Shown here: piece after piece, positions 14,410 to 18,022 of the stretch | Layout: every line of letters starts with the position of its first letter | How positions within the stretch are numbered: position 1 is the stretch's first letter | DNA from: a phage | Strand: one strand, 5' to 3' | Assembly: GCA_021454005.1 (NCBI GenBank) | Contig: GCA_021454005.1_3939.1 | DNA: 44,706 nt | The notes under the pieces: model-generated | Told to the model about the DNA's origin: nothing | The model's database searches: none | Seen by the model: the letters and a program-made list of their open reading frames with translations, nothing else | Made by a program: the position numbers and the translations under genes

Positions 14410-15597
14410 ATGGCAGTAGGTGAAATTCAAATTAGTGCCTTGCCTCAAGCAGCCTTACCAATTGACCTTAGTGATATCTTCCATCTTAAGCAGGGTATTG
14501 AGGATAAGAGATGTACTCTTGAGCAATTACTTGCTCCACACTCAAGCCTAAGAAATAACCCTCATGGTGTGACTAAAACACAAATTGGTTTAGATAATGT
14601 TATTAATTCTCTTCAGTTAGTTGCTGCAAATAACTTATCAGATATTGTTAATGTAGCTGAGGCAAGAGCAAATCTACAGATTATGTCTTCAGAAGAGGTT
14701 AATAACCTTGTTCAACAGCATATTCAGGACAAGAGCAACCCACACAATACAACTAAGGCACAGGTAGGATTGAGTAATGTTCAAAACTGGACAACATCTA
14801 ACCTTTATAATGAAGATGCAGATAAGTATGCTACAGCAAGAGCAGTAAATAACTTGTACAAGGCTGTTCAGGCTTCCTATCCAGTAGGTACTATCCATCT
14901 TTCCATGAACTCTGCAAACCCTTCTACATATTTAATTTGTGGGGGTACTTGGGAGTTAGTTTCAAAAGGTAGAGCATTGGTTGGTTATGACTCTGACACA
15001 AGACCAGCAGGTTCTGTATTTGGTGCTTCAACTGTTACTTTGTCAGTTAATAACATGCCTCAACATTCACACTCCGTGTCTCTTAGTGGTGGTGGTCACA
15101 CTCATAATGCAACTGTGTCAATTTCAGCTTTTGATTATGGAACTAAGACTACCAATTCTTTTGACTATGGAACAAAGACTACTAACACAACAGGTAACCA
15201 CAACCATGTTGGTAGTGGGTCAACAAGTACTGCTGGTGCTCACAACCACAGATTGACATATGAAGCAGGCGGTGGCCTATCGGAAAGACCTGCAATGGTT
15301 TGGTCTACAAGAAATGACCAATCGTGGTACTCAGCAGATGCTGTCTGTGAAGTCGCTGGTGCACATACCCACTCTTTCAGTGTTACCACCAACACAACTG
15401 GTAACCACAACCATACAGTAGGTATTGGTGCTCACAGCCACACAGTTGGTATTGGTTCGCATACACATAATGGTACTGTAACAGTTTCTTCTTCTGAACA
15501 TACGCATAGCGGGAACACTAATAGTGTTGGTGGAGGACAAGCTTTCAACATTGAGCAGCCATCCTTCGTACTGTATGTATGGCAGAGAACAGCTTAA
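14410..15597 (+). CDS. tail fiber protein (short), His-rich tip
   Basis: Two copies of the phage tail-fibre repeat (NPHGVTKTQIGLDNV, NPHNTTKAQVGLSNV); C-terminal FDYGTK repeats and HxH motifs (TGNHNH, AHSHTVGIGSHTH); C-terminal end shared with next gene. Confidence 0.65.
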   Translation: MAVGEIQISALPQAALPIDLSDIFHLKQGIEDKRCTLEQLLAPHSSLRNNPHGVTKTQIGLDNVINSLQLVAANNLSDIVNVAEARANLQIMSSEEVNNLVQQHIQDKSNPHNTTKAQVGLSNVQNWTTSNLYNEDADKYATARAVNNLYKAVQASYPVGTIHLSMNSANPSTYLICGGTWELVSKGRALVGYDSDTRPAGSVFGASTVTLSVNNMPQHSHSVSLSGGGHTHNATVSISAFDYGTKTTNSFDYGTKTTNTTGNHNHVGSGSTSTAGAHNHRLTYEAGGGLSERPAMVWSTRNDQSWYSADAVCEVAGAHTHSFSVTTNTTGNHNHTVGIGAHSHTVGIGSHTHNGTVTVSSSEHTHSGNTNSVGGGQAFNIEQPSFVLYVWQRTA

Positions 15598-15643: not shown

Positions 15644-18022
15644 ATGGCAGATTACAAGTTGAGTGAATTAAACTCAATCGATACAATCCGTTCAGATGAC
15701 CTTCTTCACGTCAGGGTTAAAAAGAGACCTGAAATGCTTGGTGATGAAGACCGTCGAATGACCTATCAAGATTTCTTAGCATCTTTTAAACTTGAAAGAT
15801 TTGTTCAGATTGCTGGTAGTACTATGACAGGTGATTTAGGGATTGTTAAGTTACTTTATGGTGGTAAGGTAGTCTTTGACCCAACAGGCTCTTCTGAGAT
15901 TACTATTGGGGATGTTTTAAAGACTTTTAAAATCAACGCAAATGGCCTTAAACTAACTATTGCAGATGCTTCAAGGTCGGCAACTGTTTATCATACTCTG
16001 AATAAGCCAAGTCCTAATGAACTTGGGATGAGAACTAATGAAGAGAATGATGCAAGATACTCAAGATTAGCTGCAAATAACACCTTTAGAGGTACTCAAG
16101 CTATTCTCTCTGACAATGAAGCCCTTATTGTTAAGAATATTACACAAGGGATGCCACTCTATATTCGTGGTCAAGATGCAGATGGCACTAACAGATGGTA
16201 TCTAGGCAATGATAATAAAGGCACAGACAACCTTGTTTTAAAAAACGTTAAATCTGGTGCATACGTAGCGATTTTAGCTAACCTAATCTCTGTGAATAAA
16301 TCAATTCAAATCACTGGTCAAGTACAACCTTCTGACTTCTCTAACTTAGATGCTAGATATTTTACTCAGACAGTTGCTAATCAGAGATTTGCACAGTTAG
16401 CTGGTAATAACACATTTAGTGGTTCTAATATTTTTACTAATTTTGTTGTTAAGAAGAATGCTAATGCTATTACCATTCAAAATGGAGATACAGCTACGGC
16501 TTTGTATATCCAAGCAAGGAAATCAGACGGAACTAATAAGTGGTATATTGGTAATGATGGTGATGAGAACATTGTAAACATCTATAACTATTTAGCAAGA
16601 ACACAAATCTCACTAGGTAACACCATTACCATGAGCAGAACAGTCCAAATTGGTGGTCAAGTTCAACCTTCCGATTGGACTAATATTGACTCTAGATACA
16701 TTCCAGCAGCTACTTTGAATAATCTTGCTAAGATTAATGTTGGTAATACATTCACATTCCAGCAAATTATCCAAGCAAATGGTGAAGCTATTAGACTAAA
16801 AAACTCTTCTGAGAACTCACCGTTGTATATTAGAGGTCAGGACAGCACTGGTGCTAATAGATGGTATGTAGGTAATGGTTCAGGGAATGATAATGTTATC
16901 ATCCACAACTATAAGACAGGCTGTGAAGTGAATCTGTCTAGTGTTGCTGCTATTAATAAAACACTAAGAATCACTGGTCAAGTTCAACCTTCTGATTGGG
17001 CTAACTTGGATGCTAGATACTTTGTTAAGACTCAGTTATTAAATCAATCCTTAATGACTGTATCTGTCGATAACCTTGAAAACCCTTCAGCATTTAATCT
17101 TGGCTACTCAGGTTTTGTAAGAAATAATAGTGTTACTAGTGGCTTGAAAGAGTTGGCAATTCATGTTGCTCACTCTAGTAAGTCTGCTGCACACGCAAGG
17201 GGTATCTCTTTTGTATACGGTTCAAACGGTTTGGCAACATTCACCTATGCCTATGACAAAAATGGTGACTATGCCGGAGAGGCACAGCTTTACACAACTG
17301 ATTTCAAACCAACCCCTTCAGATATCGGTGCATACACTAAAGCTGAGACTGACCAGAAGATTGCACAGGCAGTAAGTGACTCTACAGACCTTAATAAAAT
17401 CTATCCAGTAGGTATTGTGACATGGTTTAACAGCAATATTGACCCTAATACAGCACTTCCTGGGTTAACTTGGACGTACCTGAACAATGGTGTTGGTAGA
17501 ACTATCAGAATTGCAGCAGCAAATGGTTCAGATGTTGCTACAACAGGTGGTTCAGATTCTGTGACGTTAGCTGTTGGTAACTTACCATCACACACCCATA
17601 GTTTCTCTGCTACCACTTCATCTTTTGATTATGGTACGAAGGGAACTAACAGTACTGGTGGTCATGCTCACTCTGTAAGTGGTACAACAAGTGCTGCTGG
17701 TAACCACGCTCACCACTTAGGTTTGTTATTAGTTAATGGTGGTGATGCTTTGTACGGTTATACAACAGTTGGTAACAGTCTCCCTAGAACACTTGACTGG
17801 CTTGACAGAAGGGACAATAAATTCCCTAACACTAACACAACTGGTAACCATACACATACATGGTCTGGTACTACAAGCGGTGCTGGCGACCATTCCCACT
17901 CTGTAGGTATTGGTGCTCACAGCCACACAGTCAGTGGTAACACTGGTGGTACAGGTTCTGGGTCAGCATTTAGTGTTACTAACCAGTTCTACAAGTTAAT
18001 GGCTTGGGTGAGAACTGCTTAA
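15644..18022 (+). CDS. tail fiber protein (long), three internal repeats, His-rich tip
   Basis: 792 aa; three ~112 aa tandem repeats (LYIRGQD..RWY.GN...[13 protein letters not shown]); C-terminal FDYGTK and HxH motifs paralogous to the upstream fiber. Confidence 0.65.

Follow-up and report, generated by a model that had tools for sequence, protein, structure and literature searches.

The subject of this study is a long tail fiber gene, and in particular the tandem repeats in the shaft of the encoded fiber, in a phage DNA stretch of 44,706 nucleotides (nt; contig GCA_021454005.1_3939.1 of NCBI GenBank assembly GCA_021454005.1), the whole of which is called the window below. The gene is an open reading frame (ORF) of 2,379 nt on the plus strand (15644..18022) that encodes a protein of 792 amino acids (aa), and its DNA is 90-97% identical to that of many Felixounavirus (Felix O1-like) myophages of E. 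coli and Salmonella. The protein matches the PHROG tail fiber family phrog_4277 from end to end (residues 1-792 against profile positions 1-780, 1244 bits). It is preceded, in this order, by genes for a 489-aa wedge protein, a 285-aa wedge protein, a 100-aa protein and a short fiber of about 395 aa that carries a Gp10_C-type collar, and it is followed by genes for thymidylate synthase and dihydrofolate reductase (DHFR). The order of the fiber locus was kept in all related loci that we fetched, namely those of phage ECP2307 and of three metagenomic contigs. In the Felixounavirus Bas63, the corresponding genes are those of wedge 2 (gp23, 489 aa), wedge 1 (gp24, 285 aa), the long tail fiber platform (gp25), the short tail fiber (gp26) and the long tail fiber (gp27) (PMC12609058), and the order in the window is consistent with these published sizes and this numbering. 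The full-length family match, the conserved gene order and the fit to Bas63 therefore bear out the label "long tail fiber" that an earlier note, made from the sequence alone, had given to this ORF, and the protein belongs to the Ounavirinae long tail fibers by full-length homology and by its position downstream of the genes for the wedge, the platform and the short fiber. NCBI has an identical protein as the TPA entry "hypothetical protein [Escherichia coli]" (P0001). No other ORF of at least 60 aa and no Rfam family was found in the repeat region.

The fiber contains three tandem repeats, which are real and statistically solid. With the linker RY..LA.NNTF included, the three units together occupy 16055-17014 (Table 1), and they share 40-49% aa identity in pairwise comparisons. 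Smith-Waterman scores of unit against unit were 193-246, as compared to a mean of about 30 for shuffled sequences (z = 27.7-41.5), and none of 500 shuffles scored as high. The comparison of the gene with itself that the earlier note had proposed as a check thus revealed significant internal repeats beyond the short motifs. The motif LYI(R/Q)... starts at aa 172, 287, and 394 (nt 16157, 16502, and 16823), and the motif I(T/G)GQVQPSD at aa 223, 336, and 443 (nt 16310, 16649, and 16970), in each case within 1-2 nt of the positions noted earlier. At the DNA level, a repeat search recovered two families of three copies each, at 16160/16505/16826 and at 16290/16629/16950, with 63-79% nt identity. 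In both families the spacing is 339-345 nt in the first interval and 321 nt in the second, corresponding to periods of 113-115 aa and then 107 aa, and not to a uniform period of about 112 aa (340 nt) as in the earlier note. The array is also slightly longer than the interval 16150-17035 named there and begins farther upstream, at 16055, because the linker belongs to the unit. Tandem Repeats Finder did not report the array in 16000-17100, as the DNA copies are too diverged; this is a limit of sensitivity and no evidence against the repeat. BLASTP of the protein against itself returned the diagonal only, and the Smith-Waterman comparison with shuffles was used instead. We also considered aa 38-137 and aa 458-571 as degenerate fourth and fifth copies, and rejected them at the sequence level (z = -1.3 to 2.4), although these two segments weakly resemble each other (z = 6.0). 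Of the five structural domains, only the middle three are thus detectable homologs of each other.

Scored alone, each of the three units lies above the gathering threshold of the Pfam family PF20744 (gp37_trimer; 21.7 bits), and the whole protein scores 188.8 bits against this family in three stretches. Residues 371-464 of the T7 tail fiber protein gp17 reach 137.5 bits; this stretch is the crystallographic "pyramid" domain of gp17 and is followed by PF12604 at residues 466-542, the tip domain. A profile built from 18 diverse units matched gp17 residues 368-438 (PDB 4A0T, 4A0U, and 7BOZ) with an E-value of about 3e-8. With the whole protein as query, phmmer found only the T4 gp37 tip in the PDB, and T7 gp17 was reached only with the profile of diverse units. 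The AlphaFold2 (AF2) model of a single unit has five beta strands and a predicted local distance difference test (pLDDT) score of 82.7. When this model was searched against the PDB with Foldseek, 4A0U and 4A0T (T7 gp17 residues 371-553) were the sole matches at E <= 0.001, with a root-mean-square deviation of 1.3-1.4 Å over 64-65 columns and a probability of 1.0, values that refer to a predicted model. We used the single-unit model alone for the fold search because the full-length monomer model was too poor (pLDDT 43), with only the three unit cores reaching 70-87 and the remainder unreliable. By sequence score the units are therefore members of PF20744, and by superposition of the single-unit model on 4A0T and 4A0U their predicted fold is that of the pyramid. 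Taken together, the three units are copies of PF20744 with a predicted five-stranded antiparallel sheet per chain, and, by analogy with T7 gp17, each unit would form one trimeric triangular beta knob.

The name of the Pfam family and a published comparison for Bas63 would have suggested membership in the T4 gp34/gp37 shaft family. We rejected this assignment, as T4 gp34, gp36, and gp37 are without PF20744; the families PF21446 (Gp34_trimer) and PF21560 (Gp34_2nd), which T4 gp34 and gp37 carry, had no match in the window protein. The names of PF20744 and of PF12604 (gp37_C) are misleading, since T4 gp37 matches neither family and T7 gp17 matches both. Like the T4 gp34 rod (PDB 5NXH), the fiber is described as trimeric, with triangular beta domains between short helical motifs, but 5NXH is absent from the 50 best matches that Foldseek gave for the unit model. 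The fiber thus resembles gp34 in architecture, with no detectable homology. The T7 gp17 pyramid domain (residues 371-447), and not the T4 gp34 rod, is the nearest homolog of the shaft knobs that can be demonstrated. With T7 gp17 the fiber shares the PF20744 family, the superposition of the predicted unit fold and a putative PF12604-type domain after the last unit. In T7, however, the podovirus fiber has a single pyramid, which lies at its C-terminal end and immediately precedes the receptor-binding tip, whereas the window protein has three in the middle of a myovirus fiber, and here the PF12604 match is marginal and is followed by a collar, needle and head like those of T4 gp37.

The existence and nature of fiber repeats are already known, as the architecture has been published for the long tail fibers of Bas63 and of the Mooglevirus Sf14. 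The 630-Å Bas63 gp27 fiber was described in 2025 by cryo-electron microscopy and AlphaFold, with the statements that its repeat domains are poorly conserved and that repeat numbers do not vary among the Felixounavirus species of the International Committee on Taxonomy of Viruses (ICTV) (PMC12609058). Sf14 gp53, described in the same year and by the same two approaches, has 792 aa as does the window protein and contains domains like the T7 gp17 pyramid (PMC11821841), and trimeric fibers were reported for both phages (PMC12609058; PMC11821841). The window fiber fits Bas63 gp27 in gene order and wedge sizes and Sf14 gp53 in length. In this sense, the repeats as first noted are an ordinary finding: a curated Pfam domain present three times, in a fiber architecture published in 2025, in a protein held by NCBI in its exact form. 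Unlike the two papers, which describe five structural domains and no variation in repeat number, we find that only the middle three are homologous in sequence, that metagenomic orthologs have two, four, or five units, and that the unit bodies are shuffled between positions.

Unit numbers were counted by hidden Markov model (HMM) in 237 close homolog clusters. Three units were present in 235 of these, and the remaining two clusters are those of P0116 (673 aa), with two units, and of P0121 (1015 aa), with five. When 1.84 billion representative proteins were searched exhaustively with a profile, an ortholog with four units (P0122, 901 aa) was found as well. The lengths of the homologs cluster at 779-797 aa. 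The loci of all three variants are syntenic with the window, on contigs of 21-87 kb, and the variants were found on two contigs (P0116), three contigs (P0122), and one contig (P0121), all from metagenome or Sequence Read Archive (SRA) assemblies (European Nucleotide Archive (ENA) ERZ27237763 and ERZ28599557; Logan SRR22802239). No cultured phage close to the four- or five-unit proteins was found.

In the two-unit allele exactly 321 nt are missing (window 16654..16974), a length equal to the period from unit 2 to unit 3, and the deletion junction lies inside TGGTCAAGTTCAACCTTC, with 18 nt the longest exact in-register match of these two units. A junction of this kind is what unequal crossing-over or slippage would be expected to leave behind. 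The five-unit allele is an exact insertion of two units at the NTF motif in comparison to three-unit relatives that are 81-83% identical. As its extra units are at most 64% identical to their neighbours, we rejected a simple tandem duplication as their origin; they are 71-75% identical to position-1 body types of other phages, which points to out-of-register recombination between different genomes. Judging by these junctions, changes in unit number probably arise by recombination. The array is thus polymorphic in copy number, with differences of whole units in register and junctions in shared motifs, and the variation is rare. The earlier suggestion that the repeats allow length variation by unequal recombination is supported in part, by the syntenic alleles with two, four, and five units and by the deletion at the shared 18-mer, but not as a frequent event: the comparison among relatives that it called for gave a number that is variable (two to five), yet strongly held at three. 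The number three may be under selection, perhaps via docking of the retracted fiber on the sheath.

Two side aspects of these searches concern P0122 and very large proteins. The called start of P0122 (MLGDEDR) corresponds to aa 31 of the window protein, and upstream of it (L003 3849-4000) a gap of 150 nt separates it from the preceding gene; translation probably begins some 30 codons farther upstream, unless the 5' end of the gene is disrupted. Among the representative proteins, the giant proteins P0129 (2080 aa), P0152 (3832 aa), and P0150 (1711 aa) gave 10-17 weak matches to the pyramid-unit profile, which suggests that other fibers have related domains in very long arrays. The stricter HMM count assigned only 0-3 units to each of them.

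Conservation among 118 full-length homologs is unevenly distributed along the fiber. It is 0.81-0.95 in the linkers but only 0.46-0.74 in the unit bodies, a level of variability close to that of the tip's receptor-binding head (0.53-0.58). Clustering at a minimum of 80% identity resulted in 21 body types that occur in 26 arrangements, with the window having the arrangement C-A-D. Type D takes position 1 in 35 of the protein clusters and position 3 in 20, and one protein has the arrangement D-H-D. The body of unit 3 in the window is 97% identical in aa to the unit-1 body of the proteins P0096 and P0094, and its DNA matches the cassette that phage ECP2307 carries at position 1 with 93.5% identity across 245 nt, a value equal to the genome-wide identity. 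In the collinear comparison with ECP2307, nt identity drops to 48-65% in the body of unit 1, in contrast to 90-98% in its flanks, and to 43-62% in the body of unit 3, with flanks above 90%. The conserved linkers, the variable bodies and the identity across positions therefore indicate that cassettes are replaced and moved between positions as the shaft evolves. Recombination in this region would be chiefly an in-register replacement of cassettes, including changes of position, and not a change of length, and its breakpoints appear to lie in the conserved NTF and ITGQVQPSD motifs. A literature search for cassette shuffling in Felixounavirus fibers found nothing specific.

Cassette exchange as such is a familiar style of tail-fiber evolution. 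Tetart and co-workers reportedly described in 1998 the "His boxes" of T-even gp37, conserved motifs that flank variable segments and serve as crossover points at which fiber modules are swapped. In contrast to these, the modules swapped here would be paralogous tandem shaft domains, so that the motifs also allow out-of-register exchange, and the variable parts are shaft knobs and not the adhesin tip.

Based on these data, we consider the three units to be tandem T7-type pyramid domains that form a spacer in the shaft of the long tail fiber, with linkers that act as homology patches for recombination and with three as the preferred number, and we give this interpretation a probability of roughly 80%. 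Three chains together would form one triangular beta knob per unit, as in the T7 crystal structure and in the Bas63 and Sf14 models, and the knobs would be separated by the conserved linkers ...ITGQVQPSD(W/F)xN(L/I)DxRY...LAxxNTF, which are predicted to be partly helical. The array would keep the N-terminus, which binds the baseplate, at a distance from the tip with its T4 gp37-like collar, needle and head, as a rigid spacer built of modules. The linkers, judging by the junctions, could provide the homology at which an in-register exchange swaps a unit body for another allele, leading to the observed types and arrangements. Out-of-register exchange would relocate a body, such as that of type D, which is known from both position 1 and position 3, and would rarely remove or add whole units, giving rise to the alleles with two, four, and five units, with three units as the strongly preferred state.

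Several points weigh against this interpretation. The trimeric knob is drawn by analogy, the full-length monomer model being poor, and AF2 may have learned the fold of 4A0T. The authors of the Bas63 study liken the domains to the T4 gp34 rod and not to T7 gp17, and they saw no variation of repeat number among ICTV species (PMC12609058). All copy-number variants come from metagenome or SRA assemblies, three clusters as compared to 235, and exact in-register matches within the gene extend over only 10-18 nt, which is short for recombination of the RecA/UvsX type. Moreover, the units may be a pure spacer or may have a role in binding.

The reading of the Bas63 paper, according to which the three units are a spacer of fixed number that changes only by point-mutation drift, without recombination between units, agrees with the 235 of 237 clusters that have three units, with the narrow length distribution, with the constancy among the ICTV Felixounavirus fibers (PMC12609058), and with the shortness of the exact matches within the gene. 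Drift cannot, however, have placed the same cassette at position 3 in the window and at position 1 in ECP2307 and P0096, with edges that are sharp against flanks of about 93% identity in ECP2307, nor can it have produced the 26 arrangements of body types or the unit-exact deletion and insertion alleles in syntenic loci. We therefore regard this reading as largely refuted and hence very unlikely. Alternatively, the alleles with two, four, and five units could be assembly artefacts of a repeated gene, with an invariant copy number: all three are from metagenome or SRA assemblies, the five-unit protein is on a single contig, and no cultured phage with these alleles was found. On the other hand, the alleles differ by whole units, exactly and in frame, the genes are otherwise intact and lie on long syntenic contigs, and two of the variants recur on more than one contig. 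The extra units of P0121 are distinct sequences and not duplicates of their neighbours, and 10-18 nt of exact identity should be too little to mislead an assembly with k = 111, as for contig k111_2436. An artefact is thus improbable.

Beyond a spacer function, the unit bodies could be interchangeable lateral modules for binding or escape, directed at host glycans, the phage's own sheath, or defence targets, kept diverse by diversifying or balancing selection and altering host range when shuffled. We regard this as possible but doubtful. In contrast to the conserved linkers, the bodies (conservation 0.46-0.66) match the receptor-binding head in variability, and they fall into discrete allele classes recombined in many arrangements; the same pattern could result from relaxed constraint on exposed spacer surfaces together with frequent recombination. 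No receptor binding is known for the pyramid domain of T7, which also counts against such a role. In favour of it, the Bas63 authors name host recognition or defence escape as possible reasons for the variability of the beta domains (PMC12609058), and after the units comes a putative domain of the family that forms the tip of T7 gp17, which binds lipopolysaccharide (LPS; cited in PMC11821841). An extension that we consider rather unlikely is that the pyramid units are combinatorial, position-independent cassettes that co-infecting Felix O1-like phages permute, replace, lose or gain at the linkers as built-in sites of recombination, with the knobs as functional surfaces whose order and number tune host range. 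If this were true, host-specificity information would reside in the shaft of the fiber as well as in its tip.

For the pyramid shaft as interpreted here, the wider comparison adds to the published architecture the apparent exchange of cassettes at conserved linkers, including their movement between positions. The range of two to five units and the position-independent shuffling qualify the published statement that repeat number does not vary. Felix O1-like phages are widely used in the typing and biocontrol of Salmonella and E. coli. For engineers who wish to swap shaft modules or change their number in these phages, the NTF and ITGQVQPSD motifs would be natural, tolerated junctions.

Table 1. 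Features of the long tail fiber gene, in order of their position in the window.
Feature	Position	Strand	Evidence
Long tail fiber gene of a Felixounavirus-like myophage, 792 aa plus stop	15644..18022	+	ORF; Felixounavirus nt identity; phrog_4277
First shaft domain U0 (aa 38-137), ends ...NDARY; not a repeat copy, highly conserved	15755..16054	+	z = -0.3 to 2.4 against units 1-3; conservation 0.89-1.0
Repeat unit 1 (aa 138-237), PF20744 core aa 159-248, cassette type C	16055..16354	+	PF20744 3e-24, 85.3 bits; unit HMM; AF2; Foldseek
Variable body of unit 1, approximate limits; sharp edges at NTF and ITGQV motifs	16064..16300	+	Collinear identity to ECP2307; low conservation
Conserved linker 1-2, putative recombination breakpoints, predicted short helices	16310..16417	+	Conservation 0.81-0.94; helix at residues 229-232 in the full-length model (low confidence)
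Repeat unit 2 (aa 238-350), PF20744 core aa 274-358, longer linker, cassette type A	16355..16693	+	PF20744 2.6e-13, 50.2 bits; alignment
Conserved linker 2-3, holds the P0116 deletion junction	16649..16753	+	Conservation 0.81-0.92; helices 342-347 and 355-358 in the low-confidence full-length model
18-nt motif TGGTCAAGTTCAACCTTC, end of unit 2	16654..16671	+	Longest exact in-register match of units 2 and 3; left border of the 321-nt deletion of contig L001
Repeat unit 3 (aa 351-457), PF20744 core aa 381-464, cassette type D	16694..17014	+	PF20744 2.4e-22, 79.2 bits
Variable body of unit 3, approximate limits	16724..16957	+	Collinear identity to ECP2307; conservation profile
Second copy of TGGTCAAGTTCAACCTTC, end of unit 3, 321 nt downstream of the first	16975..16992	+	Exact match
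Domain U4 (aa 458-581), marginal PF12604 (gp37_C) match	17015..17386	+	9e-05, 23.0 bits against a cutoff of 22.5
T4 gp37-like receptor-binding tip: collar, needle with six HxH motifs, variable head (aa 690-745)	17393..18019	+	PF21939 Gp10_C; 2XGF

The domains that flank the array differ from the repeat units. The first shaft domain U0 had no Pfam match. In U4, the PF12604 match (aa 497-581) exceeds the cutoff only when the fragment is scored by itself and falls to 17.8 bits in the scan of the whole protein, so it is marginal; in some relatives, an allele that clearly belongs to PF12604 is present here. By this match and by its alleles, U4 appears to be another swappable module, of the T7 gp17 tip family. 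The alleles seen at the U4 position in homologs look unrelated to one another and include the type of the window (AIHVAH...ARGISF), the PF12604 type (...NGGMWYRT.RD..GFE..WSKVYT), and longer inserts of 130-225 aa.

The C-terminal part is a receptor-binding tip of the T4 gp37 type, with a collar, a needle with HxH motifs and homology to 2XGF. The PF21939 (Gp10_C) collar at aa 584-691 is below the Pfam cutoff (23.5 as compared to 27 bits), the match to T4 gp37 (PDB 2XGF) covers aa 647-771 with an E-value of 2.6e-21, and the six HxH motifs of the needle lie within aa 650-761. The head (17712-17878) is the other hypervariable segment of the fiber and carries a 30-nt indel in comparison to contig L001 (window 17812-17841); presumably it is the main receptor-contact site. 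The fiber as a whole is a chimera: the baseplate-binding N-terminus is followed by an unrelated beta domain, then by three pyramids of the T7 type and a domain like the T7 tip, and the protein ends in a tip of the T4 type.

The 395-aa short fiber encoded upstream (14410-15597) contains small repeats of its own. The sequence NPH(G/N)(V/T)TK(T/A)Q(I/V)GL(D/S)NV is present in two copies 60 aa apart (aa 50 and 110; nt ~14557 and ~14737), and FDYGTKTTN occurs twice in tandem with a period of 10 aa (aa 241 and 251). A 27-nt tandem repeat of 2.1 copies encodes HTVGIG(A/S)H(S/T)H in the HxH needle. The sites 15130-15186 and 15399-15456 cover both short-fiber duplications, and such small in-frame duplications could vary the length of the needle.

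NCBI lists a near-identical Felixounavirus fiber (P0304), encoded on a contig of 88 kb, under the title "tail fiber protein [Methanobrevibacter gottschalkii]". Both this entry and the NCBI record of the window protein look like phage contigs inside host or contaminated assemblies.

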